Shown one piece after another: positions 7,357 to 42,319 of a DNA stretch of 43,054 nucleotides. Under the pieces are notes generated by a model. The model did not search any database and was not told where the DNA came from. It worked only from the letters and a program-made list of their open reading frames with translations. The stretch is from positions 1 through 43,054 of the forward strand of contig CAZOVJ010000002.1 in NCBI GenBank assembly GCA_964583685.1, in the 5' to 3' direction. Origin of the DNA: an uncultured Gammaproteobacteria bacterium. GTDB lineage: Bacteria; Patescibacteriota; Microgenomatia; UBA8517. Made by a program: the position numbers and the translations under genes. Position 1 is the stretch's first letter. Each line of letters starts with the position of its first letter.

Positions 7357-9151
7357 CGGAAAGCTAAATTTTAAAAGAATTAAAAAAGTACTCGTTAGCA
7401 AGACAAACGGCGGGAAAAACGGTCCTTTTAAGAGGGTTCGGAAGTTTGAATTTGGAGAGCAGGATTTGATCGACCTTATCTCCTACTCGGGCATTAAAGA
7501 ACGTCCCAACTACATAAGGATGGGTAATAAGTACATACGAACGCTTTTTATCTCGGGCTATCCTTATGTAGCTTCAACCGGGTGGCTTAATATGCTTATC
7601 AACTTTAACCACAACGTCGATATTTCCTACCATATAGAACAAATTGACCCTCTTTTAGCCCTTCCCAAACTAAACAGGAAAATAACCGAGCTTGAGTCAA
7701 CCAGGCGCAGTATGCAACAGCAGGGCAAGATAATAGGTTCTGAACTCACCGACCCTTTAAAGTCGGCTGTAGAACTTAAGGAGGCTATTTTAAGGGGCCA
7801 GGAGAAGCTTTTCCAGATATCAATTTACATAGCCGCGATTGCAGATACTCTCATTGAGCTTGACAAGATAACCACTCTTTTAGAAACGACACTGGCTACA
7901 AAACTTTTTTATACAAAAACGGCCAGCTTTCAGCAACTTGAAGGCCTTCAGTCGGTCCTCCCGAGAGGAGAAAACCTGCTTTCGCAAAAAAGAAACCTTG
8001 ACAGCTCATCTGCCTCTTTGACTTTTCCTTTCATTTCAAGCGAGTTTGTCCAGGAGTCCGGAATTCTCTACGGGATTAACAAGTCAAATAACTCCCTTGT
8101 CATGATTGACAGATTTTCCCTGAACAACGCAAACAGCATTACCTTTGCCCAATCGGGAAGTGGCAAAAGCTACGCCGCAAAGGTGGAAATTCTAAGACAG
8201 CTCATGCAAAAGACAAAAGTAATCGTCATTGACCCGGAAAGAGAATACAAGCAGCTGACCGATTCTTTGAAAGGAACCTACATCAAGCTTTCGGCAAGGT
8301 CCAAAGAAAAGATAAACCCCTTTGATTTTTCTGTCGGCTTCCATGGAGACGGAAATCTGGCGGAACACATCCAGGACTTAACCGAGATAATCTTCCTGAT
8401 GGTCGATGGTTTAACGGCCCAGGAAAAAGCCGTAATTGATAAAGCAATTATTGCAACCTACAAAAAACACGGCTGGTCGATAAAAGGTAAAAACACCCGT
8501 AGCAAAGGAAAAACCTTCCCTCTTTTAAAAGACCTTTATAAAAATCTTCGTTCGACAAGGCACAAAAAGCTTTACACCAGAATGGAGAAATTCATCAAAG
8601 GCTCGCTGTCAAGCGTTTTTGACAGCCCGACAAACATCAAGCTTGACAACCGGCTGGTTGTTTTTGACATCAAAGACCTGCCCGAATCAATCAGACAGAT
8701 AATGATGGTAATTATTGCCAATTATGTCTATAACCAGGTTAAAAAAGAACCCCAAAAAAGGCTTCTTGTAATTGACGAGGCCTGGATGCTTTTGGAGCAC
8801 GAAGAAAGCGCAAGGTTTATTGCCGGCCTGACAAGAAGAGCAAGAAAATATTACCTGGGAGTAAGCATCATTTCACAACAGGCCAACGACTTTTTAAACA
8901 ACGAATACGGAAAAGCCATTGCCTCCCAAGCATCACTTAGGCTTTTAATGCGCCAAGATACGACAACCATTAATGAAGTAGTCGAGCAGTTTAAGTTAAG
9001 TGAATACGAGCATAAATATCTTTTGACCTGCGACAAGGGAGAGGCTTTGATTATCGCCGATTCAAACCACGTTGCTTTGAAAATAGTTGCGTCCAAAAAA
9101 GAGCACCCACTGATAACTACTCACCCTGCCGAAATATATCCAACCCCATGA
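7349..9151 (+). CDS. virB4: VirB4/TraC/PrgJ-family T4SS ATPase (central and ATPase domains)
   Basis: Walker A SGSGKSY and Walker B LLVIDEAW. The RTLFISGYP...GWL motif is typical of the VirB4 middle domain. Confidence 0.85.
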   Translation: MFNGKLNFKRIKKVLVSKTNGGKNGPFKRVRKFEFGEQDLIDLISYSGIKERPNYIRMGNKYIRTLFISGYPYVASTGWLNMLINFNHNVDISYHIEQIDPLLALPKLNRKITELESTRRSMQQQGKIIGSELTDPLKSAVELKEAILRGQEKLFQISIYIAAIADTLIELDKITTLLETTLATKLFYTKTASFQQLEGLQSVLPRGENLLSQKRNLDSSSASLTFPFISSEFVQESGILYGINKSNNSLVMIDRFSLNNANSITFAQSGSGKSYAAKVEILRQLMQKTKVIVIDPEREYKQLTDSLKGTYIKLSARSKEKINPFDFSVGFHGDGNLAEHIQDLTEIIFLMVDGLTAQEKAVIDKAIIATYKKHGWSIKGKNTRSKGKTFPLLKDLYKNLRSTRHKKLYTRMEKFIKGSLSSVFDSPTNIKLDNRLVVFDIKDLPESIRQIMMVIIANYVYNQVKKEPQKRLLVIDEAWMLLEHEESARFIAGLTRRARKYYLGVSIISQQANDFLNNEYGKAIASQASLRLLMRQDTTTINEVVEQFKLSEYEHKYLLTCDKGEALIIADSNHVALKIVASKKEHPLITTHPAEIYPTP

Positions 9152-9759
9152 CCCCCCAGCTTCTCCTTGCACTTTTTTCTTTCAGAAAAGAAATAACTTA
9201 CGTATTGACAGCCTTTTTGCTGGTCATACTTTTGCCAATAATCGCCGTAATTGTCATAACCAGAGTCGGAATTGATGTGGTATCGGACAGGCTGGTTGAG
9301 TATGATAGCGTTACCGGATCGGTTTTAATTAAAAATCCAAAAGACGGTTCTGTTTATAAGGAAATAAAAGGAACCTTTGTTTGGCCGGTTAAAGGAGTAA
9401 TTACTTTAGAATTCGGTGAATCAAGCATTTTCCAGCCATTTCATACCGGGATTGATATAGCAAACCCAGAAGGTAAAAAAGGGGATCCGATTACTCCGTT
9501 TATGCCAGGCAAGGTTATCTATGCTGGACGGATTTTCTGGGGATTCGGCAAACATGTAATAGTCGACCATGGAGATAACCTGACCTCAATTTATGCGCAT
9601 CTGGATACAATAAATGTCGAAAAGGGCCAAGACGTTAAGCCTGGAAACGTAATCGGAACAGAAGGCCGTACAGGTTGGGCAACAGGACCCCATCTTCACT
9701 TTCAAATAAATGTCTTTGGAATACCCGTAAACCCGAGGGTGTTCTTAGGAAGTTCCTGA
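9148..9759 (+). CDS. Membrane-anchored M23/LytM peptidase (candidate T4SS cell-wall hydrolase)
   Basis: An N-terminal TM helix, then the HTGIDIA and HLHFQI zinc-ligand motifs. Confidence 0.85.
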   Translation: MTPQLLLALFSFRKEITYVLTAFLLVILLPIIAVIVITRVGIDVVSDRLVEYDSVTGSVLIKNPKDGSVYKEIKGTFVWPVKGVITLEFGESSIFQPFHTGIDIANPEGKKGDPITPFMPGKVIYAGRIFWGFGKHVIVDHGDNLTSIYAHLDTINVEKGQDVKPGNVIGTEGRTGWATGPHLHFQINVFGIPVNPRVFLGSS

Positions 9760-22591: not shown

Positions 22592-24340
22592 TTAGTCAAG
22601 TTCAACCCCTTCACCAGAGACAAAAACGCGCTCGCTATCTTGGGAATTGATTGGGAAAAGATAAACCCCATCAGCATCAGCATAGGTCCAGGCAATTGGT
22701 TCATGTTTAGCGGAAACAATGACCCAAATCCAAGTCAGTAAGTCTCCATAATCTATTCTTTCTCTCCGGATTCTCTGAAAAAAGTTCTTTGAATAAAAAA
22801 GCACGGCTGAACCGGGTTCAGCTCTTCCCGCCATCAGGGCTGAATTATTAGCCAAAGCCTTTTCTTTATTAAAAACAAGCCTTTCTTCAAAATCTTCTCC
22901 TCTCTTTTTAAGTGAATAAACAAATATTCTTTTCCCCGGACTCTCTATGACGGCTAAATCAAAAATATAATCTTTAAATAATTCCTTTGTTTCCGAAACT
23001 CCAAATCTTGCCAGGGAAGTAATATGTAAATTATTGCCAACATAGAGCATATAAGGAGCAAGGACCGCCTGAAAATCAATAAAAACCTTTTTGTTCTCAG
23101 CTAAAAAATCTTCGATGACTTGGAAGTTATCTTGACCAACCCAAAAGATTCTTCCGTCATAAAAGGTAAAGGGCTGATGATAATGAGTCTGAATCAGTAC
23201 ATTACCCGGAGGTAAACCCTTCTCCAAACGATGCATCAAAACCAGGGGCATATCCGCTCTGGTAGAAACATAAAGTAAGCCATTTGCCAGAGCAATCGGT
23301 AGTAAATATAAAAGCAAGAAGACCGCTTTTTTAGAAAACCTCTGAACAATCAGCAAAGCAAATAAAACTCCGGCAAATACCGTCCTTCGCATCATAAAAT
23401 CACCTGTCCAGACCGCTCCGAGAATGAAAAGGGAAATGATAAAAAGCAAACAACCAAAGAGAAAAAACTTTTCTTTTCTCTTTAAAAAGGCAATAACTAA
23501 AACAATAATCGGGGTTAAAGAACCAAATCCCCGCAAGAGCGAGAAAAGAAAATTCCTCAACATACGAAAAATTCCATCAATACTGAAAAAATCAAAGTGT
23601 TCTCCAAGTCTGGCAAAAAAAAGCTCTCTTAGCTTCAAAACAACATTTTGCCCGGAGAAGGCAAAAATCAGAGCATAAAGCAAAATTGAAAGTAAAAGGC
23701 TAAACAAAGAAAGGGAAAGGAGAAACAGCAAGTTTTTCCTTTTAGATTGCTCTGGTCTTTGCCTGAGAAGAAAGGGGAAAGCAAAAAGAGCCGGAAGCCA
23801 AAAAATTGCCTGAATATGGACACCAAACATGGCCACGACTGACAAGATGTATAAAAGTGCATTGAGCTTTTTCGGTTTTTCGAGGAATCTTAAAAAAAGT
23901 AGACTAGACAAAAGAAAAAAAGTAAGCAGCAAGGACTCCACCATGAGGTTGGTATTTATAATCCAAACCGCCGGAAAAAGGCAAAAGATAAGCAAGGCCA
24001 AATATCTCCCTTTTTCTTTTAAAAAGAACTTGCTTAATTGAAAGAAAAGGAAAATAGAAACAATTCCAAAAACAAAGGCGCTGAGATTGGCACTGTATTC
24101 CCAGGAAATTCCCCCAAAAAATCTCAACAATCTTGAAATCAACCATAAAACAGCGATAAAGAAAGGGTGAATCGGTTGATGTCCCAAACCTAGAGACTGG
24201 CAAAAACCATTTTCTGAGATTATCCGAACAAACTCCGGAGCGTCATAGAAAAGCAAAATCCTCGGTGTGGTGAGAAAAAGGGCAAATGAAATCAGAAGAA
24301 AGAAAAAGATAAACCCTCTTTTACTTATCATTTGCTGCAA
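22592..24340 (-). CDS. Polytopic GT-C-like glycosyltransferase (ArnT/PMT/DUF2723-like) with a C-terminal soluble domain
   Basis: At least 10 TM helices. An acidic first-loop motif (YDAPEF) and about 190 aa of non-membrane C-terminus. Confidence 0.5.
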   Translation of the reverse strand: MQQMISKRGFIFFFLLISFALFLTTPRILLFYDAPEFVRIISENGFCQSLGLGHQPIHPFFIAVLWLISRLLRFFGGISWEYSANLSAFVFGIVSIFLFFQLSKFFLKEKGRYLALLIFCLFPAVWIINTNLMVESLLLTFFLLSSLLFLRFLEKPKKLNALLYILSVVAMFGVHIQAIFWLPALFAFPFLLRQRPEQSKRKNLLFLLSLSLFSLLLSILLYALIFAFSGQNVVLKLRELFFARLGEHFDFFSIDGIFRMLRNFLFSLLRGFGSLTPIIVLVIAFLKRKEKFFLFGCLLFIISLFILGAVWTGDFMMRRTVFAGVLFALLIVQRFSKKAVFLLLYLLPIALANGLLYVSTRADMPLVLMHRLEKGLPPGNVLIQTHYHQPFTFYDGRIFWVGQDNFQVIEDFLAENKKVFIDFQAVLAPYMLYVGNNLHITSLARFGVSETKELFKDYIFDLAVIESPGKRIFVYSLKKRGEDFEERLVFNKEKALANNSALMAGRAEPGSAVLFYSKNFFQRIRRERIDYGDLLTWIWVIVSAKHEPIAWTYADADGVYLFPINSQDSERVFVSGEGVELD

Positions 24341-24981
24341 ACAAAAAAAATATTGGCCTCCGGAGTAATCGCTTTCACCCGAGGAAAAAATTTCTCCAAT
24401 TTCTCTCCAAATCTCGCTGATTGAGGCCTTTTCTCTCCATAATAAAGCCTGTTAAAAACAGCTACTCCTCCTTTGTTTAAAAGGCTGGACACCAACTGCA
24501 AAAATCTTTTTTGTTCAAATTTCTCGGGCATTCTATCGCCAACATAGATACCAATTAAGATAAGGTCGTAGTCAGTCAACAGTGAAGAGTGAACAGTACA
24601 AAATTCAAAGGCATCTTGAATAATTATTTCTGTTTTTGTCTTGTCTAAACCCAAATACTTTTTTCCTAACTTAATCATAATCGGGTCAATTTCCACTCCA
24701 GTAATCTGCGCCTCTGGCCAAAATTTACGAACCAGCTTGGCCGCACTTCCGCCACCCAGACCAAGAATTAAACAAGTTTTGACATTTGGGATTTGCTTTT
24801 TGAGTTTTTTCAACGTGCTTTTCCAAACATCCCTAACCACCCCCCCAGACTGGGTCGTCCCATCAGCCTTCAGATAAATCCCCCAAGCAAGATCCCGTAT
24901 AACCGTCAATTTGCCATTAATAGGCGACTCAACCTCGGCTAAAACCTTTCTGCCTCCTAGTAAATCTCCTGCCCTATTCAT
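24328..24981 (-). CDS. Spermidine synthase-like SAM-dependent methyltransferase-fold protein
   Basis: LILGLGGGS glycine-rich loop, VEIDPIMI and DLILIGIY motifs. Confidence 0.65.
   Translation of the reverse strand: MNRAGDLLGGRKVLAEVESPINGKLTVIRDLAWGIYLKADGTTQSGGVVRDVWKSTLKKLKKQIPNVKTCLILGLGGGSAAKLVRKFWPEAQITGVEIDPIMIKLGKKYLGLDKTKTEIIIQDAFEFCTVHSSLLTDYDLILIGIYVGDRMPEKFEQKRFLQLVSSLLNKGGVAVFNRLYYGEKRPQSARFGEKLEKFFPRVKAITPEANIFFVCSK
24578..24598. repeat. Three heptads AACAGTG AAGAGTG AACAGTA, related to the tsaE tract
   Basis: Read directly. They encode CTVHSSLLT on the minus strand, compared with STVHRSLFT in TsaE. Confidence 0.7.
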
Positions 24982-31284: not shown

Positions 31285-31992
31285 TTAAAATCTTTTGGTT
31301 TGGTAAGTGTAGCCACTTTGTGATCTTTTCAAATAAATGCTTTTAAGCCAACAATAAATTGTTTGCCAGTAGCCAGCCTTATCAAATCCCCTTGAAGAAT
31401 AGTGAATAAGCATCCCGGGATTAAAAACACCCTTGTGCCTGCCAGATTGCCAAAATTTTCGAGTCAACCAATAGTCCTCAGCCACAAAAGGCTCCCAGCC
31501 ACCAAGCCGCCAAAAAAACTTTTTTCTGATTGCCAAATTATTACCCACCAAATAAAGCCGTGAGAAAAAGAAATTCAAAATTAAGACATTAAAATAAACG
31601 GCCAGGGTATAAAGGTTATACCAAACTTTTTTGATTAAGCTTTTATGGGTAAGGAGATTTAATCCTGAAACAGCCACTACATCCCGGTCAGATAGAGCTT
31701 TCTTGCTTTCTTTTAACCAATTTTTGGATAAAATCCCGTCTGCATCAATAAAGCAAAAAACGTCTCCCCTGGCCATTTCCGCCCCCTTGTTTCTGGCATA
31801 ACTTATCCCCCTTCTGGCTTCTTTATAAACCCTGCATCCCAATTTTCGAGCTATTTTGGCGGTCCGATCGCTGCTACCATTATCAACAACAACAATCTCG
31901 TCGCTAGACCCAATCTGTACCTGAATAGATTTAACACATTCAGCCAGATAGTCCTCTTCATTTAAGGCGGGGATAATAAAGGAAAACTTCAT
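31285..31992 (-). CDS. Family 2 glycosyltransferase
   Basis: SFIIPALNEE, VVDNGSSDRT and IDAD (DxD) motifs. Start chosen at ATG 31992. Confidence 0.8.
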   Translation of the reverse strand: MKFSFIIPALNEEDYLAECVKSIQVQIGSSDEIVVVDNGSSDRTAKIARKLGCRVYKEARRGISYARNKGAEMARGDVFCFIDADGILSKNWLKESKKALSDRDVVAVSGLNLLTHKSLIKKVWYNLYTLAVYFNVLILNFFFSRLYLVGNNLAIRKKFFWRLGGWEPFVAEDYWLTRKFWQSGRHKGVFNPGMLIHYSSRGFDKAGYWQTIYCWLKSIYLKRSQSGYTYQTKRF

Positions 31993-32033
31993 AAACAAAT
32001 TATATCCCAAGCATATATAATAACTGCCAAGAA

Positions 32034-34301
32034 ATGAAGAAACTAATTTTTCTACTCTTTGCCCTTTCCGGAGCAGTAGGGCTCACCTACCAAATTGTCT
32101 GGGCGCGTCTCTTGGTTTTAGTTTTCGGCAACACTACCCATTCCCTGACAATCATACTTTCAGTCTTCATGGCTGGTTTGGCTAGCGGGGCTGCAGTCTT
32201 TGGTTTTATTTCAGACAAACTAAAAAAACATATCAAAGTCTGGGGTATTTTAGAAATACTCATCGGAATTAATGCTTTTTTTATGCTTTATTCCCTACCT
32301 TATATAAAGGAAATATATATGCCCTTTATGTCTGCTTCAAAATTTCTCCTCACTGCCGCCATAATCTTCCCGGCCACATTTTTTATGGGCGGAACCCTGC
32401 CTTTACTTATTAAGGCATTTTCCTTGGGGAAAAAAGATGTTGCTACTGAAACTTCAAAACTTTATTTCTTCAATACCTTTGGAGCTTTTGCCGGCACCCT
32501 GGTTTCTGCCTTTGTCTTGATAGAACTCTTTGGTCTGAGAACATCTGCACTTATCGGTGTTTTTATCAACATTGGCATCGGCATCCTTGCCCTGTTCTGT
32601 ATCAATCTAGAGAAAGAAAAAGCTCAGATATCTTATTTAGAAACAGAGGAAGAGAAAACCTCAAATATAATTCCTAGTAAATATAATTTACCGAAAATAC
32701 TCTTTGTTCTGTTTGCTTTCTTTTTATCCGGAGCAATTTCTCTTTCCTACGAAATTCTCTGGACCAGGCTACTCATTCCCTCATTGGGAACTTTTGTCTA
32801 CGCATTCTCCCTTATTCTCTCTTTGATTCTGTTGGGAATTAGCCTTGGGTCTGCCTTGACAAAATATCTCATCCCCAAAACTCCTTATAAACTTTTCCTC
32901 CTCGGTAGTATTGAGTTTGGCATAGGATTCTTTGCCATCCTCTCCTTGCTCGCCAGTGGTAGTTCCATCAAGTTAGCCAGTAGCCTAAAACTCCTGGCAA
33001 TACTTCTACCTGCCTCTTTACTCATGGGAACAACCTTTCCTGTTGTCAGCTCTTTGTTTAATAATCCTAAGCGCAGCGGAAGCAATATAGGCGGGGCCTA
33101 TGCAGCCAATACTGCTGGCTCAATTATCGGACCAGTTGTAACCGGCTTTTTCTTAATACCCTATATTGGGACCTCAAACAGCTTGATTACACTTGCCCTC
33201 TTGAATATCACCTTGGGAGCAATCCTCGTCATTCTGGAAAATAAAAAATTCTTTTTTCTCTTATCGCTAAGTTTTGTAGCCTTCTTTTTCCTGACTTTAA
33301 TTCTTACTAAAAAATCGCCAAGTCTCTTTATTGAAAAAAGTTTGGCCGACAGAATCGCTTCCTACCAACAAAAAGGGTGGTCTTACCAACTTCTTGAAGA
33401 CGAGGTGGCAACAACTCTGGCTTTTGGTAGTCAGAGTCCATCACCTGACGAAAAGGGACTGATTATTGATGGAGTACAGACAACAAGTCTGACTTTACAA
33501 ACAAAACTCTTGGCCCACCTTCCTTTGCTAGTCCACAGTAATCCTCAAGATGTTCTGATTGTTGCCTTTGGTATGGGTACTACTTTCAGGTCAGCTCTGG
33601 CTTATGAGGTGAATGTTGACGCTGTCGAACTTGTATCATCGGTTCCCAAAACCTTTCCTCTTTTTTACTCAGATGCCCAGTCGGTTCTGGAAAACCCAAG
33701 GGGCCATATTTATATTAATGATGGCCGAAACTATGTTCTTTTTTCCCAAAAACAATATGACATCATCGTGGTTGACCCGCCCCCACCAATTAATGCGGCT
33801 GGAACAACTGTTCTTTATTCAAAAGAATTTTATCAAGATGCCAAAAAAATTCTCAAAAAGGGAGGTATTTTTGTCCAATGGTTTTGGTATGGGGCCAGTG
33901 CAGAAGATTTCAAAATGCTCTTCGCCAGCTTCCAGGAAGTCTTTCCCAATATCCTTGTTGCCGTCTCACCAGAAGGAACCGGTGTCTTTTTCCTCGGTTC
34001 AGAAACGCCTCTAAAAATCAATAAAGAAAATCTTGCTCAAAGGTATAACGGTAAAGTCTATCAAGACCTTAATGAGTGGAATAAAGAAGCATTTACTCTA
34101 GACAAACTTCTCGGATTTTTTGTTGGTAATGAAAAGACGGTCAAGCGATTTGTCGGTCAAACCCCAGCAGTGACCGATGATTTACCAAGAACTGAATACT
34201 TTTACTTACGCCACAAATTCCGACCGCTGGCCAATATCTCGGCCGACTGGGTCCACCCCATCGACCCGGAGTTTGATAAAGAACTGGGTATTCGGAGATG
34301 A
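32034..34301 (+). CDS. Fused polytopic membrane / spermidine synthase-like protein
   Basis: About 12 TM helices, then VLIVAFGMGTT, VELVSSV, INDGRNYV and DIIVVDPPPP (spermidine-synthase fold). Confidence 0.8.
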   Translation: MKKLIFLLFALSGAVGLTYQIVWARLLVLVFGNTTHSLTIILSVFMAGLASGAAVFGFISDKLKKHIKVWGILEILIGINAFFMLYSLPYIKEIYMPFMSASKFLLTAAIIFPATFFMGGTLPLLIKAFSLGKKDVATETSKLYFFNTFGAFAGTLVSAFVLIELFGLRTSALIGVFINIGIGILALFCINLEKEKAQISYLETEEEKTSNIIPSKYNLPKILFVLFAFFLSGAISLSYEILWTRLLIPSLGTFVYAFSLILSLILLGISLGSALTKYLIPKTPYKLFLLGSIEFGIGFFAILSLLASGSSIKLASSLKLLAILLPASLLMGTTFPVVSSLFNNPKRSGSNIGGAYAANTAGSIIGPVVTGFFLIPYIGTSNSLITLALLNITLGAILVILENKKFFFLLSLSFVAFFFLTLILTKKSPSLFIEKSLADRIASYQQKGWSYQLLEDEVATTLAFGSQSPSPDEKGLIIDGVQTTSLTLQTKLLAHLPLLVHSNPQDVLIVAFGMGTTFRSALAYEVNVDAVELVSSVPKTFPLFYSDAQSVLENPRGHIYINDGRNYVLFSQKQYDIIVVDPPPPINAAGTTVLYSKEFYQDAKKILKKGGIFVQWFWYGASAEDFKMLFASFQEVFPNILVAVSPEGTGVFFLGSETPLKINKENLAQRYNGKVYQDLNEWNKEAFTLDKLLGFFVGNEKTVKRFVGQTPAVTDDLPRTEYFYLRHKFRPLANISADWVHPIDPEFDKELGIRR

Positions 34302-34886: not shown

Positions 34887-34959
34887 GGCCCTGTCGTCTA
34901 GTGGACCAGGACACTGGGTTCTCATCCCAGAAACCGGGGTTCGACTCCCCGCAGGGTCA
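34887..34959 (+). tRNA. tRNA-Glu (anticodon CTC)
   Basis: Manual cloverleaf: acceptor GGCCCTG/CAGGGTC, D-arm GTCTAGTGGACCAGGAC, anticodon stem CTGGG/CCCAG with loop TTCTCAT, T-arm CGGGG-TTCGACT-CCCCG. It is collinear with E. coli tRNA-Glu. No CCA is encoded. Confidence 0.85.
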
Positions 34960-35385
34960 CCCATTAAACTTCAAAAAATTTAATATAACTTCTTTATGAT
35001 CAAGTGCAATATCAAGCTCAGCTAGTTCTTCTTCAGAGAAAAAACCTATTTCAGATATTTCCCTAGTGTCAATCTCACCAAGAACAGCTTTACTTTCTAC
35101 CCTACCTCCAAAATAAAAAGTATTCCAACGAGAACCCATACTCGTATCAGGGTTTAGAATTTCCCTATAAAAAGTCGGTTCAAAAACCAAACCAATTTCC
35201 TCTTCCGTTTCTCTTTTTATTGCCTCCAGCTTAGTCTCTCCAGAATCAGGCTTACCTCCTACTAAACACCACTTTCCCTCCTCGACTGTTCCTTTTGCTC
35301 TCCTTGCAAGTAAAACTCTCCCTTCTTCATCAAGCAAAATTAGCCTGACTACAACCCTAACTGGAATTTCGTTCTCTTTCTCCAT
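34957..35385 (-). CDS. NUDIX hydrolase
   Basis: Nudix box GGKPDSGETKLEAIKRETEEEIGL. Start chosen at Met 29 of the tracked ORF (ATG 35385). The stop codon overlaps the last 3 nt of the tRNA on the other strand. Confidence 0.8.
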   Translation of the reverse strand: MEKENEIPVRVVVRLILLDEEGRVLLARRAKGTVEEGKWCLVGGKPDSGETKLEAIKRETEEEIGLVFEPTFYREILNPDTSMGSRWNTFYFGGRVESKAVLGEIDTREISEIGFFSEEELAELDIALDHKEVILNFLKFNG

Positions 35386-35732
35386 AGTGGCCTGATTATA
35401 ACAACTTGGATTAGATTGTGGTGGAAGATATAATATAGCCGAGTTAAGTAATCTTGAAGCGAGTTCCATTTCACGGATATTTGGGTCACCCAGTAAAATT
35501 TCTCAAGCTCCCAAGATTTGCATCAGTTCTCCGGGGGAAACTACTTTGAAGTCTTTCAGTTCTTTACTCTCTCTTTCATCTAGGTCAAAAACTTCTTTAA
35601 TTCATCATCTCTATAGCCGCGGACAGGATATGGAAGAACTTTAATTTGTTCTTCTTGAATTAGATCTTTCATAGTTTCCAACTTCCCATATCTTAGAAGA
35701 AATAATCAACTCTGCCAACCCCTGAAAGAAAA

Positions 35733-35781: not shown

Positions 35782-35810
35782 TTGACAATGTATTATTTAG
35801 TATATACAAT
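35782..35810 (+). promoter_or_regulatory. Consensus sigma-70 promoter TTGACA-17 nt-TACAAT with overlapping palindromes, for brnTA
   Basis: TTGACA at 35782-35787 and TACAAT at 35805-35810. The palindromes ATTGTC-ctt-GACAAT and ACAATATTGT overlap the -35 and -10 elements. The GTG start at 35817 lies about 7 nt after the -10. Confidence 0.55.
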
Positions 35811-35816
35811 ATTGTT

Positions 35817-36113
35817 GTGCTCAGGATTAAGGAACCAATTAAATTTGTTTGGGATAAGGGAAATATCGACAAGAATTGGAAGAACCATCAGGTAACCAAT
35901 CAGGAGTGTGAAGAGATTTTCTTTGATGAAAATAAAAAAATCTCGAAAGATGTATTACATTCTAAAAAGGAAAAAAGATATATCCTTTTGGGAAAAACTA
36001 AAAAAGACAGATTATTATTTGTTATTTTTACATTGAGAAACAAGAAAGTAAGAATCATTTCAGCAAGAGATATTAACAGAAAAGAGGTGAAACTTTATGA
36101 AAAAACAACTTAA
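35817..36113 (+). CDS. brnT: BrnT-family (DUF497) type II toxin
   Basis: FVWDKGNIDKNWKNHQVTNQECEEIFFD...RLLFVIFTLRNKKVRIISARDINRKE matches the BrnT pattern. Confidence 0.8.
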   Translation: MLRIKEPIKFVWDKGNIDKNWKNHQVTNQECEEIFFDENKKISKDVLHSKKEKRYILLGKTKKDRLLFVIFTLRNKKVRIISARDINRKEVKLYEKTT

Positions 36114-36357
36114 ACTACCCAAATTCAAAAATGAAGACCAAGAAAGAAAGTTCTGGGCTAAAGTTGATTTGGCTGAATACTTTGAGCCAGCTGATTTTCA
36201 GCCAGTTTCTTTTCCTAACCTAAAACCAACGACTCGTTCAATTTCTATTCGACTACCTGAGTATTTAATCGACAGGATTAAAGAACAGGCGAATGAGATT
36301 AGTGTTCCTTATCAGTCTCTTATTAAGGGTTATTTAAAAAAGGCTGTTTTTAAATAA
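36097..36357 (+). CDS. brnA: BrnA-family antitoxin (RHH/CopG-like C-terminus)
   Basis: Overlaps brnT by 17 nt. The segments FW...RSISIRLPEYLIDRIKEQANEISVPYQSLIKGYL are BrnA-like. Confidence 0.7.
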   Translation: MKKQLKLPKFKNEDQERKFWAKVDLAEYFEPADFQPVSFPNLKPTTRSISIRLPEYLIDRIKEQANEISVPYQSLIKGYLKKAVFK

Positions 36358-36415: not shown

Positions 36416-37708
36416 ATGAGCCAGTTTTATAAAATTGCCAGCAAGGTTAAGCGGGAAAAACATATTGTCTGCATTGGCCATCTGGACCATGGGAAGTCGA
36501 CTCTTTTGGGTCGGCTTTTTTACGATTTAGGAAAGATTGATAAAGAAGTGATGAATCGAATTAAGAAACATGCCCAAGTTTTTGGTCAGGAAAAATTTGA
36601 TTTTGCTTATCTTATGGACCAGCTTAAGGAAGAACGAGCGCGGGGAATTACAATTGACTTGGCACACAAAAAGCTGGAGACGAAAAAGGCCTCGATCACC
36701 TTTGGCGATGCCCCTGGCCACCATGATTTCTTGAAAAACATGCTGGTGGGCGCGGCTGAATCAAACGCCGCTGTTTTAGTGGTGGCTGTTGACGAGGGAG
36801 TGAAAAGGCAAACAGAGGAGCATTTGTTTTTGGCAAAGATGCTTGGTTTAGCCAATGTCATTATCTGCATCAATAAAATGGACTTGGTTGATTATCAAAA
36901 AACTCCTTTTAACAAAGTTAAAAATCAAGCAGTCTCTCTTCTGAAAAAAGTGGGTTATTCTCCTCAAGAGGTGCCGATTATTCCCACTTCCGCCTTATAT
37001 GGAGAAAATATTGTTAAAAGGAGCAGAAAGAGCAAATGGTTTAAGGGCCCCAGTATTTTGGGGACGATTGAAAACTTACCGCCAACAAAGATCCCCACTG
37101 ATTTACCCCTCCGCTTGCCTGTTCAAGATATTTACCAAATTAAAAAAAGGTTGGTGGTCATTGGCCGTTTAGTTTCCGGGGTTTTAAGAAAAAGAGATGA
37201 GATGGTTATCTTCCCAAAAAAGAAAAAGTTGGCGGTTGAAAAGATATTTATTCAAGATAAAGAAATTAAAAAAGCTATAGCTGGGGATAATCTTTATTTG
37301 TATCTGAAAGGTTTAAAAAAAGGCCTAGTAAAAAGAGGTGATATGATTACCTTGGCAAAAAATCCACCGTTGATAACAAAGAAATTTAGGGCCCAAATCA
37401 TTGCCTTTGGTCTTTCTCAAAACATTAAATCAGGATTTCAGTTTGTTTTTGAGATGTTAACCGAGGAAACACCGGCAGTAATTAAGAAAATCATCCGCAA
37501 AATTGATACCACCACAGGAGCAACAATTAAAGGAAGAAAATTAAAAGATAATGAAGCCGGGGAAGTAATAATCACCAGCAAAAAACCGATTTTTATTGAA
37601 GCCCAAAGCCAACTAGCTCCCCTGGCCAGCTTTCGTTTAAAAACTAAGAAGAAGATAATAGGAATGGGGATTTGTCTGGAGGTGCTTGATGAAAAGAAAA
37701 AAAGTTAA
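36416..37708 (+). CDS. EF-1alpha/CysN-family translational-type GTPase, candidate sulfate adenylyltransferase GTPase subunit
   Basis: G1 GHLDHGKST, G3 DAPGH, G4 NKMD and G5 SAL. FDFAYLMDQLKEERARGITID is typical of the EF1A/CysN clade. 430 aa with beta-barrel domains II and III. It is encoded in the same operon as the cysD-like gene, two genes upstream of it. Confidence 0.8.
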   Translation: MSQFYKIASKVKREKHIVCIGHLDHGKSTLLGRLFYDLGKIDKEVMNRIKKHAQVFGQEKFDFAYLMDQLKEERARGITIDLAHKKLETKKASITFGDAPGHHDFLKNMLVGAAESNAAVLVVAVDEGVKRQTEEHLFLAKMLGLANVIICINKMDLVDYQKTPFNKVKNQAVSLLKKVGYSPQEVPIIPTSALYGENIVKRSRKSKWFKGPSILGTIENLPPTKIPTDLPLRLPVQDIYQIKKRLVVIGRLVSGVLRKRDEMVIFPKKKKLAVEKIFIQDKEIKKAIAGDNLYLYLKGLKKGLVKRGDMITLAKNPPLITKKFRAQIIAFGLSQNIKSGFQFVFEMLTEETPAVIKKIIRKIDTTTGATIKGRKLKDNEAGEVIITSKKPIFIEAQSQLAPLASFRLKTKKKIIGMGICLEVLDEKKKS

Positions 37709-38471
37709 ATTAATGGTTGTCGGCCTTGATGCCGCTACCTGGAAGGTTATTAAGCCAAATTTGGAGCAATTGCCTAATTTTGCTCAGTTAATGAAAGAGG
37801 GCAGTCATAAAACCCTAACAGTTCCAGACAAAGATGCGATTCTTTCACCGCCAATCTGGTGCTCTATTTTCTCGGGCAAGACCCAAGAAGAACACGGTCA
37901 TAAAAAATACGTGGTTGATAACAAGCTACAAACAAGAAAAGATATTAAAGTTGACTTTATCTGGGATATTTTGGAGAGAAAAGGAATTAAGGTGGCTGCT
38001 CTTCAAATTCCTTTTGTGATGCCGCCTTACAATTTCAATTGTCATTACCAGCCGGTGGGGTACGGCATTTCATCCGATTTAAGTGAGTTGGCCGAAGATA
38101 CTGATAGAGTATTTTTTAAATCTTTAGAGGTTCTCAAAAAACAAAAGCTGGAAGTATTTATCGTTGTCTTTTCTAGCCTGGACCGAATTCAGCATTTCCA
38201 TTGGGGTGAGCCATTGATTTTACCTTGGTACAAAAAATTCGACAAAATCTTAGGCGTTCTTAAGAACTATGGAGAGAAACTAATTATTATTTCTGACCAT
38301 GGTTTTTGCGGAATTGGCGAGGCAAGGGTAAAAACTCTACCTGAAAAAAATGAAAAAGGGGAGAAATTAAAAGGTGACCACCACCAAGATGCAATTTTAA
38401 TCAGCAAAAACATCAATTACAAGATTAAAGAACACAAAGATATTTTTGAGGCTATTTTAGGAGAAATTTAA
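37689..38471 (+). CDS. Alkaline-phosphatase-superfamily protein (nucleotide pyrophosphatase/phosphodiesterase-like), short paralog
   Basis: VVGLDAATW, DRIQHFHW and ISDHGF metal-ligand-type motifs. GGAGG RBS before ATG 37689. Overlaps the upstream stop. Confidence 0.6.
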   Translation: MKRKKVKLMVVGLDAATWKVIKPNLEQLPNFAQLMKEGSHKTLTVPDKDAILSPPIWCSIFSGKTQEEHGHKKYVVDNKLQTRKDIKVDFIWDILERKGIKVAALQIPFVMPPYNFNCHYQPVGYGISSDLSELAEDTDRVFFKSLEVLKKQKLEVFIVVFSSLDRIQHFHWGEPLILPWYKKFDKILGVLKNYGEKLIIISDHGFCGIGEARVKTLPEKNEKGEKLKGDHHQDAILISKNINYKIKEHKDIFEAILGEI

Positions 38472-38472
38472 A

Positions 38473-39165
38473 ATGCAAAACCCCTTAGAAAGCCAGAGTG
38501 AATTTATTATTAAAGAGGCCAAGGCACGATTTAAAAACCCGGTCCTGCTTTGGGCCGGGGGCAAAGACAGCACGACCATGCTGACGATTGGCCGAAAAGC
38601 CTTTTCTAGGCTAGTAAAATTTCCTTTTCCGGTCATGCTCATTGACACCAGTTATCAATTTAAAGAGACCTACCAATATATAGAGAAGTATGCCAAGCAA
38701 TGGAAACTTGAATTGATTCGTTTTAAAAATGAAAAGGCTTTAAAAAAAGGAATTAATCCCTTTACTACCAATCATTTTCAGTGCTGCCATGCTTTAAAAA
38801 CAGAAGCACTGGCCATGGCCATTAGGCAATATAAATTTGATGCTGTTTTAGTCGGTATTCGTTGGGATGAACACGGCGTTCGGGGAAAGGAAAGTTATTT
38901 TTCCTGGCGAGATAACCCGCCCCATATGAGAATTCACCCGATGCTCAATTGGTCAGAAAAAGAAATCTGGAGTTATCTGAAAAAAAATAAAATTCCTTAC
39001 AATCCTCTATACGATCGAGTAGAACATGGGAATTTAATCTACCGGAGTATTGGCTGCTGGCCATGCACCAAACCGGTTTCCCGAGAAACCCTAGAGGAAC
39101 GCGGCGGCCGAGCTCTGGATAAGGAAGAATTAATGGAAGACCTTCGTGCCCTAGGTTATATGTAA
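38473..39165 (+). CDS. cysD: CysD-like PP-loop ATP pyrophosphatase (sulfate adenylyltransferase small-subunit family) with extra CC...CxxC cysteines
   Basis: PP-loop WAGGKDST. KTEALAMAIRQYKFDAVLVGIRWDE, FSWRD and the C-terminal ERGGRALD...LGYM are collinear with E. coli CysD as I recall it. Cys104-Cys105 and Cys195-x-x-Cys198 are present. Confidence 0.8.
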   Translation: MQNPLESQSEFIIKEAKARFKNPVLLWAGGKDSTTMLTIGRKAFSRLVKFPFPVMLIDTSYQFKETYQYIEKYAKQWKLELIRFKNEKALKKGINPFTTNHFQCCHALKTEALAMAIRQYKFDAVLVGIRWDEHGVRGKESYFSWRDNPPHMRIHPMLNWSEKEIWSYLKKNKIPYNPLYDRVEHGNLIYRSIGCWPCTKPVSRETLEERGGRALDKEELMEDLRALGYM

Positions 39166-39552
39166 TTAAAAATAGCCAAGGTTTCGCAGCCTTTGTTTCA
39201 CTTTTGCCTCCTCTTTTACCTTCTTCTCTCCTTTCTCCTTATCGAGGAACTTCTTAATCATCCGGCAAAGGTCGTTTCTCGACTGAGCTCCAACTTTTCT
39301 TTGAACCTCTTTTCCCTTTTTGAAAACAACAAACGTCGGCACGCCGGTAATATGGTACTGGGAAGAGAAGATGGGGTTTCTATCAAGATTGATTTTGACT
39401 ACCTTAAATTTCCCTTGATAATCCTTTCCCATCTCTTGCAAAAGAAGATTAGTCGTTTGGCAGGGCAAACACCAGGAAGCCCAAAATTCCACTAAAACAG
39501 GTAGCTTAGATTGTAAAACTTCTTTGGCAAACTCCTGGCTAGTAATATCCAT
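39166..39552 (-). CDS. Thioredoxin with a Lys/Glu-rich C-terminal extension ending LRNLGYF
   Basis: WCLPC active site in an FWASWCLPCQ context with a thioredoxin fold of about 105 aa, plus a tail of about 23 aa. Confidence 0.85.
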   Translation of the reverse strand: MDITSQEFAKEVLQSKLPVLVEFWASWCLPCQTTNLLLQEMGKDYQGKFKVVKINLDRNPIFSSQYHITGVPTFVVFKKGKEVQRKVGAQSRNDLCRMIKKFLDKEKGEKKVKEEAKVKQRLRNLGYF

Positions 39553-39555
39553 TGT

Positions 39556-41058
39556 CTAAATGTCAAGCTTTGCCTGATATCCTTTCTTCTTCTTCCTCCC
39601 TGGTCGGTAGACTTCTAAAACCTCAGATTTTTTCTTCTCTCCTGACCACCTAGTTTTCGGCCAAATAACACGTGCCTTAGCCTCGATTCTTTTTTTGATT
39701 TCAGCCTTTGTTAAAAGCTTAAACATTCGGGAAATTTCCTTTTCCAAACTAATTTTTGGTCTGAAACCCAGTCCTCGAGGTAAGTTTTGCGAGACAACCT
39801 CAAAAGGATGCACCTCTGCTTCAACCCTCGGGTTTTCTAATCTCTGAATCCTTACTTTAAGTCCGAACTCCTTCCCTACTTTAGCCACTATTTCCGCTAA
39901 ATCTATTATTTTGTGTAGGCCGGAAACTTGGTTAACGACCGCATACTGTCCTGGTTCTGGTGGTGAGGCAATTAACCTCACCATACACTCCATCGCGTCT
40001 TCTAAGGCAATCATCCCTCTTATCTGGTCACCACTACCATAAACAGTTAAAGGAAGACCCAAAATGGCTTGGGCGACAAATCTGTTAACGACTGTCCCAA
40101 ACCACTCGTCAATATCAAGCCGAGTCCGAAGCCCGGGATCAGTCACTACTTCCTTGGTGTAAACACCATAGATAACGCCCTGCATGACATCATAGGAACG
40201 CAACCACCAATATTTACAGGCCTCGTAAACATTAAAGGTATCTTGAACCTTACTAACGTGATAAAAGCTGACCGGATCCCGGGGAGTCAATTCGCCGCCC
40301 AAACTCCATTCTCTCTTATCCCATTTGAGAACAGCGTCAGCAGGGAACATTCCTTCAAAAAGTGGCCTACCAGTCAGGGGCGTCCCATATTCTCCCATCG
40401 TGCCAAGTTTAATCAGAGAGGCGTTCGGTACTGTGTCTTTCATTGCCCATAAAAGACCAAGGGTTCCCAAAACATTATTTCTTTGGACTTCAATGGCATG
40501 GTTAGCATCAATCATACTATAAGGAGCAGAGGGAATTTCTGCGTAGTGGACAATCGCTTCTGGTTTTTCTTCGTCTAAGAAATCTTTTAGCTTTTCTTTA
40601 TCATTGATATCCATTTTGCGGAAGTTGATATCAATACCCAATACATCTTTGGCAAGCTTGAGGCGCTCAGTCATTCGGCTAATGGGAACTATTGTCTGGG
40701 CCCCTCTTTCCATCACACAGTCTCTTCGATAATAATTGTCAATCCCGCTAACCTTACATCCTAATCTGGCTAACTTTAAAGCAAGAGTCCAGCCGAGATA
40801 ACCATCTATCCCTAAAATCATCACCCTCATCCCCCGAAGTAAGTAGCCATAATTTGTCTTTCGCCATTGGGAACATTGCTCGAAAGTGATGTTAGGTTCG
40901 TAAAGTCCCAACTCTGGTCTTCGGTGACATTCAATCACTATCTGTCCTTCACCCCTCAAACTCTCAATCTTCTTTTCCTGGCCACAAGCACGAAAATCAA
41001 CATTGCCTTTAAATTTAGCAGCCGGGCAATTCCAGCAAGTTCTATTTTTGTTATGCAT
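39556..41058 (-). CDS. sqdB: UDP-sulfoquinovose synthase (SQD1/SqdB/Agl3 family) with a Cys-rich N-terminal extension of about 78 aa
   Basis: Collinear with plant SQD1 as I recall it: GIDGYLGW, SAPYSMID, NNVLGTLGLL, KLGTMGEYGTP, SFYHVSKV (Tyr-His-x-Ser-Lys), NRF..QA..G.PLTVYG.G.Q.RG and NPRVEAE. Confidence 0.85.
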   Translation of the reverse strand: MHNKNRTCWNCPAAKFKGNVDFRACGQEKKIESLRGEGQIVIECHRRPELGLYEPNITFEQCSQWRKTNYGYLLRGMRVMILGIDGYLGWTLALKLARLGCKVSGIDNYYRRDCVMERGAQTIVPISRMTERLKLAKDVLGIDINFRKMDINDKEKLKDFLDEEKPEAIVHYAEIPSAPYSMIDANHAIEVQRNNVLGTLGLLWAMKDTVPNASLIKLGTMGEYGTPLTGRPLFEGMFPADAVLKWDKREWSLGGELTPRDPVSFYHVSKVQDTFNVYEACKYWWLRSYDVMQGVIYGVYTKEVVTDPGLRTRLDIDEWFGTVVNRFVAQAILGLPLTVYGSGDQIRGMIALEDAMECMVRLIASPPEPGQYAVVNQVSGLHKIIDLAEIVAKVGKEFGLKVRIQRLENPRVEAEVHPFEVVSQNLPRGLGFRPKISLEKEISRMFKLLTKAEIKKRIEAKARVIWPKTRWSGEKKKSEVLEVYRPGRKKKKGYQAKLDI

Positions 41059-42319
41059 AAGTTTTATCTAAAAGAGAAACAAAATCTTCTACACTGAGAT
41101 TTTTTGCTAGAGTTTTTATGCGAGGGCTTTTAACAAAGAGAAAAGCATCCTCTAGAGTATGACTGCCGGTGAAAATATCTTTTTCAAAGAGAGTTTCTTT
41201 ATCAATCGCCCCTTTCAATCTGAAGCCAGGATTGGGCAAAAGGACTAAATCCGGCGCCCAATCCAGAAATTTGCCATGATAAATTTCTTCTTGGCGATAG
41301 ATCCTTTTAATTACTTTTTTACCTCGGTATTTCAATTTGTTAAAAATCTCTACCATTCCATTAATAACATCGCCTGCTTCGGCCTTGGTCACTTTACCTC
41401 GCGGATATTTCCCTTTTTCATGGACGTAAATTCTGGCAGGATCTAAAGCAAATGCTTTAGTCTTAGCTGTAATTTGATTATAACTTTTAAGGGTTTTGTC
41501 TAAATCTAAAAGCCCCTTTTGCTTTAAGAAAACATTAATATTAACGTTTATCTTCATCCTTCCCATCCCGTGGTCTGAAAGCATCAGTAAGGAATCGTCT
41601 TCCTCCAGCCGTTCCTTAATCTCGCCAATGACAACATCTATTCTCTGAAAATAATGAATAAAGTCTGAGTGATATTGATGATTCTCTTCTTGATAAGCGT
41701 CCCAGAGAAAATGGCCCAGTCTATCAGAGCCTGTAAAAACAAGCATCAAGACATCCCAGTCTTCTTTTTGCCAAAAATAACGATAAGCTTTAATTCGCGC
41801 CTCAAGGGTCTCTGACAACTTTTTTAAAAATAAACTTTTTGATTGATGGGCTAAGGCAGAATCAACATCCACCCTATAATTTAATTCTTTCAATTTAGGG
41901 AGATATTTTTGAGGATAAAGTGCTTTCTCTAAATCTAAGGAGATAAAGCCAGAAATATGAACTCCATTTAAGGGCTGGGCTGGATAAGTGGAAGGAACAT
42001 TAATAATCACATATTTTTTATTTCCCTTCTTCTGCCAAAAAGGAGGACAACGAAGGCTGGTAAAATCAGGGAAAGAGAGGCTGTAAGTTCCCGGGATAAA
42101 TTCCATAAAGCCAAAAATGCCATGCTGGGCTGGGTTTTTGCCGGTAATAATAGAGCTCCAGGCGATGGAGGAGATCGGTGGAATAGAAGAACGCATTTTT
42201 TGGAAAAGACCTTCCTTTTTCAGGCTCTTAAAATTTGGCATTACTCCCTTTTCCGACAAGTCCTCCATCAACCCGTAAGGTGCCCCGTCAATACCGATAA
42301 TAACTGTTCTTTTCTTCAT
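41051..42319 (-). CDS. Alkaline-phosphatase-superfamily protein (COG3379-like phosphodiesterase/pyrophosphatase), long paralog
   Basis: IIGIDGAPYG, PPISSIAWSSIITGKNPAQHGIF, GSDRLGHF and LSDHGM motifs. Overlaps the sqdB start by 8 nt. Confidence 0.7.
   Translation of the reverse strand: MKKRTVIIGIDGAPYGLMEDLSEKGVMPNFKSLKKEGLFQKMRSSIPPISSIAWSSIITGKNPAQHGIFGFMEFIPGTYSLSFPDFTSLRCPPFWQKKGNKKYVIINVPSTYPAQPLNGVHISGFISLDLEKALYPQKYLPKLKELNYRVDVDSALAHQSKSLFLKKLSETLEARIKAYRYFWQKEDWDVLMLVFTGSDRLGHFLWDAYQEENHQYHSDFIHYFQRIDVVIGEIKERLEEDDSLLMLSDHGMGRMKINVNINVFLKQKGLLDLDKTLKSYNQITAKTKAFALDPARIYVHEKGKYPRGKVTKAEAGDVINGMVEIFNKLKYRGKKVIKRIYRQEEIYHGKFLDWAPDLVLLPNPGFRLKGAIDKETLFEKDIFTGSHTLEDAFLFVKSPRIKTLAKNLSVEDFVSLLDKTYA

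Follow-up and report, generated by a model that had tools for sequence, protein, structure and literature searches.

The window analysed here is the 43,054-nt stretch of contig CAZOVJ010000002.1 (assembly GCA_964583685.1), and at positions 36416-42319 it carries a block of six genes arranged in two convergent operons. The block is best explained as a dedicated pathway from sulfate to UDP-sulfoquinovose that feeds a surface glycan, built of two conserved modules and with the reduction step carried out by alkaline phosphatase (AlkP)-superfamily proteins and thioredoxin; a probability of about 0.6 is given to this reading as a whole. The function at the level of the modules is considered highly probable, and the AlkP-dependent mechanism of reduction is held tentatively, at somewhat below even odds. 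Only the predicted identities of the short-chain dehydrogenase/reductase (SDR), the CysD-like protein, the GTPase, and the thioredoxin rest on homology, and the roles of the AlkPs are deduced from genomic context and from the gap in the pathway. The genes and their parts are as follows.

36416-37708, plus strand: CysN-like GTPase close to archaeal elongation factor 1α (EF-1α), 430 aa, GTP_EFTU domain
37689-38471, plus strand: sAlkP, short AlkP-superfamily enzyme of the nucleotide pyrophosphatase/phosphodiesterase (NPP) type, 260 aa, PF01663
38473-39165, plus strand: PP-loop protein, putative short CysD-like ATP sulfurylase subunit, 230 aa, PAPS_reduct
39142-39162, plus strand: CysD tail ...LRALGYM of the PP-loop protein, in alignment with the catalytic ECGLH tail of CysH
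39166-39552, minus strand: thioredoxin (WCLPC) with a C-terminal extension of about 25 aa, 128 aa, Thioredoxin domain
39169-39189, minus strand: CysD-like tail ...LRNLGYF that ends the thioredoxin
39556-41058, minus strand: SDR, whole ORF, 500 aa
39556-40830, minus strand: SDR core, residues 77-500, putative UDP-sulfoquinovose synthase of SQD1/Agl3 type, NF041015
40831-41058, minus strand: N-terminal Cys5 domain of the SDR, with C8, C11, C25, C44, and C62 invariant
41051-42319, minus strand: lAlkP, long NPP-type AlkP-superfamily enzyme, 422 aa, PF01663

All six ORFs lie where an earlier note on this DNA had placed them, tightly packed and convergent. sAlkP overlaps the GTPase gene by 20 nt, its ATG start being that of public gene calls, and is followed by the PP-loop gene after 1 nt; thioredoxin and SDR genes are 3 nt apart, and SDR and lAlkP overlap by 8 nt. 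The plus and minus operons abut stop-to-stop with 0 intergenic bases (TAA directly followed by TTA). The domain identities proposed in that note for the six proteins agree with Pfam and NCBIfam profiles. Its two AlkP paralogs do both match PF01663, but at only 21% identity they are distant paralogs that represent two separate conserved families. An identical six-gene block was found on independent contigs from three sources (JGI, Logan, and ENA); because of this, and because each half is conserved well beyond the host organism, the arrangement is not a product of chance. Conservation in relatives, which the note had named as a check, holds for the genes, though as two separable modules and not as one six-gene block, and none of the note's three refuting outcomes was obtained.

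The window amounts to 43 kb, and the genome to at least 350 kb. No APS (adenosine 5'-phosphosulfate) kinase, ECGLH-type CysH, sulfite reductase, or SqdX/SqdD-type transferase, all of which the note had reported as absent from the cluster, is encoded within these 43 kb. The rest of the window encodes SecA, a release factor, three aminoacyl-tRNA synthetases, GreA, and an island with type IV secretion system (T4SS) and pilin genes, and the closest database homologs of its proteins carry the Patescibacteria label. The window thus looks like a part of a small-genome bacterium, in line with the reduced surroundings of the candidate phyla radiation (CPR)/Patescibacteria type described earlier.

Predicted UDP-sulfoquinovose synthase and Cys5 domain

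The SDR scores 424 bits on the UDP-sulfoquinovose synthase model NF041015 and at most 48 bits on any other SDR family, and an identity as GalE or dTDP-glucose dehydratase was rejected on these scores. Arabidopsis SQD1 (PDB 1I24) is matched with 269 bits over residues 75-472; the next structure reaches 45 bits. Motifs GIDGYLG (GxxGxxG), KLGTMGEYG (T145 and the Met), and SFYHVSK (Y182, H183, and K186) are at least 90% conserved among 75 homologs, in which the His of VHY is kept as well. When compared with the catalytic and essential residues listed for Agl3 and SQD1 (PMC4388408), the SDR keeps the Agl3-essential His95 and Met145, and Arg101 of EQRSAPYSM is replaced by an invariant Pro (E.PSAPYSM). 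This replacement was considered as a signature of the clade bearing the Cys5 domain and was rejected as such; SQD1-like paralogs of about 400 aa without the domain share the Pro, and it appears to mark a broader clade. The SDR is thus assigned by its sequence to a divergent clade of UDP-sulfoquinovose synthases, as the earlier note had proposed, and its predicted activity, with all catalytic residues present, is the addition of sulfite to UDP-glucose to give UDP-sulfoquinovose.

The Cys5 domain is a 75-aa N-terminal extension of the SDR with five invariant Cys and has no match in Pfam. An exhaustive search of 1.84 billion proteins revealed it in 41 representative clusters only, as SDR N-termini, in one intein-bearing SDR, and as stand-alone proteins of 68-85 aa (P0369, P0382, P0385, P0393, P0397, P0398, and P0400). 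Fusions to CysH or AlkP enzymes were not present among these 41 clusters. Since the stand-alone proteins correspond to the domain, it is an autonomous module, and a metal-binding or sulfo-carrier/redox role is proposed for it. The 845-aa SDR homolog P0364 carries an intein-like insertion of about 345 aa exactly at the catalytic KLG/TMGEYG site.

Conserved lAlkP-SDR-thioredoxin operon

A metagenome scan with the SDR gave 231 relatives in one collection. Eighty loci with 66-83% identity over the full length were fetched, and the six window proteins were mapped onto the fetched loci to count neighbours. By script count, lAlkP immediately precedes the SDR, on the same strand, in 57 of the 59 evaluable loci, and it is intact in 56/59, since in locus L022 it is a pseudogene remnant. 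Thioredoxin follows the SDR directly in 67/68 loci. The full trio of lAlkP, SDR, and thioredoxin occurs in 52 of 54 evaluable metagenomic loci, which come from CPR bacteria and many archaea, and also in a Saccharibacteria metagenome-assembled genome (MAG; L017), a Nitrospinae contig, a Hydrothermarchaeales genome, and a 1.4-Mb genome contig. When species-representative genomes were searched with the lAlkP protein, L017 was the sole locus obtained, a single-protein query of this kind finding close relatives only. The lAlkP family itself has 1699 matches in archaea and bacteria, with source names including Woesearchaeota, Bathyarchaeia, Promethearchaeota, and Desulfatiglandales. The minus-strand trio is a strongly conserved operon.

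The trio is usually flanked by a second, epimerase-type SDR of about 315 aa, by glycosyltransferases of families GT2 and GT4, and by a flippase-like membrane protein. Because glycan-synthesis genes are its usual flanks, the UDP-sulfoquinovose product is most likely used for a (surface) glycan. The link drawn in the earlier note to the GT-C/GT2 genes at 22.6-34.3 kb of the window is only hinted at, by 42% identity over 86 aa between the window GT2 and the trio-associated GT2 family.

Predicted sulfate activation genes

The PP-loop protein matches PAPS_reduct with 160 bits and comes close to the cutoff of the CysD model NF003587 (191.5 against 195), the score on TIGR02039 being 151 with a cutoff of 397. 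Its alignment with CysD of PDB entry 1ZUN_A gives 129 bits overall and 105 bits for domain 1 (residues 4-150). At 230 aa it is about 70 aa shorter than CysD (about 300 aa), and two CysD inserts are absent. The PP-loop motif is AGGKDS; all members of the family keep GGKDS, C104, C105, C195, C198, and the tail. The four Cys (CC...CxxC) form the Fe-S ligand pattern of APS reductases and align with the APS reductase encoded in L022. The C-terminal tail ER.GR..D...GY[FM] is common to the PP-loop protein and Escherichia coli CysD; where CysH has the catalytic ECGLH, it lacks the catalytic Cys, and no ORF with ECG[LI]H was found in the window locus.

Relatives with 56-59% identity adjoin an APS kinase gene in glycan clusters with sulfotransferases and without a second ATP sulfurylase, which argues that this short Fe-S CysD-like family makes APS. 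Three CysD-like subfamilies are separated in a small tree, all with the tail. The first comprises long Fe-S forms paired with CysN-like GTPases, and E. coli CysD is nested among them; the second comprises short Fe-S forms, including the window protein; and in the third the four Cys are missing. Short Fe-S CysD-like proteins that share 52-54% identity with that of the window were also recognized on a phage contig (L009:8001-8654, L010) amid the 7-deazaguanine genes for QueC, GCHY-1, PTPS, and a radical-SAM protein, and on a virus-like contig with glycosyltransferases (L014/L015:8001-8696). Phage genes of this type annotated as 'PAPS reductase/cysH' have the CysD tail and no catalytic Cys.

The GTPase has intact G1, G3, and G4 motifs in its translation (GHLDHGKS, DAPGH, and NKMD). 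NCBIfam models give 418 bits for EF-1α and 265 bits for CysN, both under cutoff, and PDB sequences give 317 bits for archaeal EF-1α (aEF1A) and 196 bits for CysN. Its identity is 40% with aEF1A but 30-35% with the CysN-like proteins of the loci and 27% with E. coli CysN; the CysN-like protein of L042, unlike the window GTPase, scores about equally on EF-1α and CysN. In a neighbour-joining tree of 12 sequences, the GTPase and its ortholog from a DPANN archaeon are sister to all CysN with 92.5% bootstrap and lie outside aEF1A. Judged by this homology and by its context, the GTPase probably drives the formation of APS by the CysD-like protein.

AlkP-superfamily proteins

Members of the sAlkP family number 663, are 252-265 aa long, and are mostly archaeal. 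Invariant residues are D14, S53, D165, H169, D203, H204, D230, and H231. Two Cys are also well conserved, C207, which immediately follows the SDHGF metal motif, at 98% and C58, near the nucleophile helix, at 91%. The AlphaFold2 model has pLDDT (predicted local distance difference test) 97, and its nearest structures in Foldseek are the phosphonoacetate hydrolase PhnA and NPP/ENPP. lAlkP matches PF01663 with 141 bits and has invariant D11, S50/S51, D199, H203, D249, H250, and H387; its model has pLDDT 95.5, with PhnA and ENPP1 as the nearest structures. A sequence search of the PDB gave no match for sAlkP and PhnA alone, at E 1e-4, for lAlkP. Affinity to sulfatases or to phosphomutases (iPGM/PPM) was rejected, as Foldseek puts both proteins in the NPP/PhnA clade. 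Both AlkPs thus keep, by sequence and model, the full AlkP/NPP catalytic set on a nucleotide-binding fold of NPP/PhnA type. Both families are annotated just as 'AlkP superfamily phosphohydrolase/phosphomutase'.

sAlkP accompanies a CysD-like gene in five independent contexts; the two genes adjoin in the window and in L005, L101, and L102, whereas in L100 they are about 1 kb apart. Its CysD-like partners span all three subfamilies, with or without a GTPase, and a more distant short AlkP lies beside Sat and APS kinase in L077. In sister clusters the operon slot of sAlkP is held by APS kinase. Since sAlkP fills this slot next to CysD-like proteins, it most likely acts on APS. lAlkP, an obligate operon partner of the SDR, is proposed to take part in sulfite supply. 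A conserved Cys of lAlkP as the target of thioredoxin was considered and rejected, as none exists.

Thioredoxin and shared C-terminal tail

The thioredoxin scores 100.2 on TIGR01068 (cutoff 96.8) and has the active site WCLPC; in trio thioredoxins the motif is mostly WCPPC or WCLPC. Six of about 70 distinct trio thioredoxins, that of the window included, carry a CysD-type tail attached via unrelated linkers. Of 4602 ORFs in the sequence analysed, 49 end in the motif L[RK]x[LMIV][GD]Y plus 0-2 residues, against 0 in a reversed-sequence control. The tail takes the form of an acidic linker and RL[RK]xLGY[MFLI]. Apart from CysD-like proteins and thioredoxins, its carriers are an APS kinase, a DUF2061 protein, three AlkP paralogs of larger size, and small ribbon-helix-helix (RHH) proteins whose genes neighbour CysD or Sat. 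The peptide seems to be a modular element for docking to the sulfate-activation machinery. The sites of the tail motif are as follows.

Window, 39142-39189: PP-loop protein and thioredoxin
L020, L024, L038, L042, L055, L072: RHH proteins
L077: APS kinase
L042: DUF2061 membrane protein
L018/L066/L069: AlkP paralogs

Linkage of the two modules

The trio of GTPase, sAlkP, and PP-loop protein recurs without the SDR arm in a DPANN archaeon (L005). On the other side, sulfate-activation genes (CysD/CysN-type, CysD-like, Sat, and APS kinase) lie within 8 kb of the lAlkP-SDR-thioredoxin trio in 8/21 long loci. An Fe-S CysD with a CysN-like GTPase is near the trio in L042, L055, L072, L085, and L096, and L096 has the colinear operon CysD-CysN-lAlkP-SDR-Trx, where Trx is thioredoxin. 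A CysD-like gene without the four Cys lies directly upstream of lAlkP in L070/L071 and in the Saccharibacteria MAG (L017; CysD-like-lAlkP-SDR-Trx), and about 0.6 kb downstream of Trx on the opposite strand in L100. Sat, mostly with APS kinase, is near the trio in L020, L024, L065, and L077. Additional genes were observed between CysD and CysN, namely a TauE/SafE-family permease in L085 (6807-7691), a HIT-family protein in L055, and in L042 (14252-14955) both a HIT-family protein and the tail-bearing DUF2061 protein. These three kinds of protein are candidate parts of archaeal sulfate-activation operons.

A CysH-type gene with the ECG[LI]H tail was found in 0/21 long loci and in one of about 85 loci, L022. 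There, a canonical Fe-S APS reductase (ECGIH) lies directly upstream of an intact SDR, and between the two genes (L022:1784-1945, contig Ga0209976_10018963) lAlkP is an internally deleted pseudogene, consisting of the first 30 codons, in which N replaces the metal ligand D11, fused out of frame with the last about 14 codons. Here lAlkP seems to have been replaced naturally by a canonical reductase.

Proposed pathway and alternative explanations

In the proposed pathway, the CysD-like PP-loop protein would adenylate sulfate to APS, driven by the basal CysN-like GTPase. The NPP-type AlkPs may then bind APS and cleave its phosphosulfate bond, and the sulfo group would pass to a thiol, for which Cys207 of sAlkP, the Cys5 domain of the SDR, and the thioredoxin are candidate acceptors. 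Thioredoxin would resolve the thiol intermediate and free sulfite at or near the synthase, and the SDR would join it to UDP-glucose to give UDP-sulfoquinovose; the net result would be a CysH-independent reduction of a sulfonucleotide. Any route from sulfate (S+6) to sulfonate (S+4) needs two electrons, and the SQD1 reaction is redox-neutral. Together with the near-universal thioredoxin, this points to a thiol-dependent reduction inside the trio. Mammalian NPPs also hydrolyse anhydrides of the APS/PAPS type. The sequence from sulfate through APS and sulfite to UDP-sulfoquinovose that the earlier note suggested is thus supported by the SDR, CysD-like, and CysN-like identities and by the co-location of the modules, but its term 'self-contained' is unproven, as no enzyme for the step from APS to sulfite is recognized by homology. 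A wider proposal is that the sAlkP and lAlkP families would be a new class of sulfonucleotide-processing enzymes that reduce APS without CysH, with thioredoxin and the Cys5 carrier, and hand the sulfite to an SQD1-type synthase, that the RLRxLGY[MFL] peptide, derived from the CysD/CysH lid, would gather the components, and that CysDN in an early form would survive in the Fe-S CysD and the EF-1α-like GTPase. Taken together, this is speculative and less likely than not, though its chance is substantial.

Several points weigh against the AlkP-dependent pathway. The score of the SDR on NF041015 is under the NCBIfam curated cutoff of 575, and the Pro at the place of the Agl3-essential Arg is shared with the paralogs of about 400 aa. 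A conserved Cys is absent from lAlkP across the family alignment, and pairs of sAlkP with a CysD-like protein also occur where no SDR is nearby, so that the product of sAlkP need not be sulfite. The nearest AlkP structures are 12-17% identical, we know of no biochemical activity for either AlkP family, and AlkP/NPP enzymes of this kind typically attack phosphorus, not sulfur. The replacement in L022 is seen on a single contig of 3.6 kb, where faulty assembly or decay of the locus could also account for it, and a canonical CysH could be encoded elsewhere in the genome, of which the window is a small part.

Two alternatives to the proposed pathway are both unlikely. In one of them, the main rival, the block would encode a split APS reductase, in which the Fe-S CysD-like protein makes and holds APS, a thioredoxin docked by its tail attacks the sulfur of APS, and the AlkPs act as accessory hydrolases, drawing the unfavourable equilibrium of the sulfurylase forward, for instance by removal of pyrophosphate or AMP. 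The CC...CxxC ligands that define Fe-S APS reductases, the alignment of the CysD tail with the catalytic tail of CysH, the ...LGYF end of the window thioredoxin, whose gene abuts the PP-loop gene stop-to-stop, and the tail-bearing thioredoxins in five other loci would all fit it. However, the tail is found on just 6 of the about 70 trio thioredoxins, the same Fe-S ligands are invariant in CysD-like proteins paired with APS kinase, where reduction is not needed, CysD-like proteins without the four Cys lie directly upstream of lAlkP-SDR-Trx in L017 and L070, and the near-universal lAlkP is left unexplained. The other alternative is that two separate modules stand side by side, the plus-strand trio making APS for another use, such as O-sulfation of glycans by AlkP-type sulfuryl transferases, and the SDR trio taking sulfite from an unlinked CysH or from the environment, with thioredoxin and lAlkP serving the redox maintenance of Cys5 or nucleotide-sugar turnover. 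In its favour, L005 has the plus-strand trio alone, and 13/21 SDR loci lack activation genes within 8 kb. The closest large contig, a 406-kb record, encodes orthologs of both the PP-loop protein (P0004) and lAlkP (P0122), but no PP-loop gene is within 10 kb of the SDR in L018, and other CysD-tailed AlkP paralogs occur in glycan clusters. Against such a separation stand the co-location of activation genes of four kinds with the trio in 8/21 loci compared with 0/21 for CysH, the colinear operons L096 and L017, and the convergent zero-gap packing kept on independent contigs; the thioredoxin in 67/68 loci also argues for a redox step intrinsic to the trio.

It is quite improbable that the SDR makes another 6-modified UDP-hexose, for example by addition of a thiol or sulfide to the 4-keto-5,6-ene intermediate, with Cys5 and thioredoxin handling the sulfur donor. 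The score under the curated cutoff, the Arg-to-Pro change, the unique Cys5 domain, and the obligate thioredoxin would be compatible with such a product, and some carrier records are named sediment metagenomes, where sulfide would be plentiful; but the residues for oxidation, dehydration, and enolisation and His183 are all conserved, and the recurrent linkage to sulfate-activation genes points to an oxidised sulfur donor. Least probable of all is a fortuitous juxtaposition in which the PP-loop protein and GTPase serve a system unrelated to sulfate, for example tRNA thiolation or the modification of DNA or RNA, even though the 52-54%-identical PAPS_reduct proteins occur in the phage 7-deazaguanine cluster and on the virus-like contig and the GTPase scores best on translation-factor models. 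The strongest matches of the PP-loop protein are to CysD, its CysD-specific tail is invariant, TilS-type models match it weakly (E 6e-4), contexts with APS kinase and sulfotransferases recur, and the 12-sequence tree makes the GTPase the sister of CysN. A role of this pair in tRNA thiolation or another PP-loop system was rejected because of the CysD scores, the tail, and the contexts with APS kinase; the pair appears to group with CysD and CysN, as the earlier note had expected.

Comparison with known systems

SQD1 of Arabidopsis (PDB 1I24/1QRR), SqdB of cyanobacteria, and Agl3 of Sulfolobus acidocaldarius (PMC4388408) share with the window SDR the extended-SDR core, the NAD motif, Thr/Tyr/Lys, His183, and the Agl3 His and Met. 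As with Agl3, the product probably goes into glycans and not into a thylakoid sulfolipid. The window SDR differs from these enzymes in its Cys5 domain, the co-operonic AlkP and thioredoxin, the Pro for Arg, and the sub-cutoff score, and no partner of SqdX/SqdD/Agl16 type was identified here. As in CysD-CysN of E. coli and Pseudomonas syringae (PDB 1ZUN), a PP-loop subunit and an EF-1α-derived GTPase are encoded in one operon, and the PP-loop protein corresponds to the N-terminal half and the tail of CysD. It is, however, shorter and has Fe-S ligands that E. coli CysD lacks, the GTPase lies outside canonical CysN, an AlkP gene stands between the two subunits, and there is no fused or adjacent APS kinase.

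With CysH of E. coli and Pseudomonas aeruginosa (PDB 2GOY) the PP-loop protein shares the PAPS_reduct fold and the four Fe-S Cys, and a dedicated thioredoxin is present here; the CysH chemistry, in which APS and reduced thioredoxin give sulfite, is what the proposed pathway needs. The window protein, in contrast, is without the ECG[LI]H Cys and has an intact ATP-type PP-loop, and therefore the reduction, if it happens here, must use a different nucleophile. NPP/ENPP and PhnA of the PF01663 clade have the same fold as the window AlkPs (TM 0.6-0.7), the binuclear metal ligands, and the Ser nucleophile. Enzymes of these groups bind nucleotides and cleave phosphoanhydride or phosphodiester bonds. 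Apart from their low identity (12-17%), the window AlkPs differ in that they seem to be cytoplasmic, no signal peptide being visible, and in that sAlkP is reduced to a core of 260 aa, which has a near-invariant Cys next to the metal site. The yitABCD sulfolactate cluster of Bacillus subtilis also has a private supply of sulfate-derived sulfite beside an enzyme forming a C-S bond, and uses classical Sat and a CysH-type reductase, whereas the slot of the reductase is filled here by unrelated proteins.

Dedicated sulfite supply beside a sulfonate-forming enzyme, SQD1 chemistry, and activation by CysDN are thus already known. In the literature searched, nothing was found on an association of sulfoquinovose synthase with thioredoxin or alkaline phosphatase, on sulfoquinovose in Patescibacteria or DPANN, on AlkP-superfamily enzymes acting on phosphosulfate, or on an Fe-S CysD. 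The obligate AlkP-SDR-thioredoxin operon, the Cys5 domain, the pairing of sAlkP with CysD-like proteins, the Fe-S CysD, the basal GTPase, and the shared tail were likewise not found there. Sulfoquinovose is among the most abundant organosulfur compounds in nature; to our knowledge, the picture of its synthesis does not go beyond SQD1 with free sulfite, and the delivery of sulfite has been an open question since the work on plant SQD1. The cluster defines a widespread operon, which ties the synthase firmly to thioredoxin and to an uncharacterised enzyme of NPP type, with carriers among CPR, DPANN, Bathyarchaeia, Asgard, Hydrothermarchaeota, and Nitrospinae. If the proposed pathway is true, it would add a new enzymatic route from APS to sulfite, assign a function to two large families of 'AlkP superfamily phosphohydrolase/phosphomutase', and credit reduced-genome symbionts with sulfate activation and sulfonated glycans, and it would offer candidate evolutionary intermediates for CysD (Fe-S-bearing) and CysN (EF-1α-like).

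Other features of the window

A BrnT toxin and CopG-type BrnA antitoxin pair (35817-36357) lies immediately upstream of the GTPase operon and is preceded by the best sigma-70-like promoter match of the region (35782-35810, 11/12). Scans for promoters and terminators were otherwise uninformative, terminators being at the shuffle expectation, and the Rfam scan of the window recognized only a tRNA. The tRNA-Glu(CTC) gene at 34887-34961 overlaps the longest NUDIX ORF (34957-35469), for which public gene calls have a shorter product of 142 aa. A GT-C (PMT_2) membrane protein followed by a spermine-synthase-like protein of methyltransferase fold is encoded at 22592-24981, and a 755-aa fusion of a major facilitator superfamily (MFS) part with a spermine-synthase-like part at 32034-34301, adjoined by the GT2 gene at 31285-32010. 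The island at 2898-9759 is similar to mobile elements and encodes a large serine recombinase, two T4SS pilins of TrbC/VirB2 type, a PrgI-like protein, an ATPase of VirB4/TraG type, and an M23 peptidase. At the edge of the window, the ORF at 22-714 has an EcoRII C-terminal (restriction endonuclease) domain.

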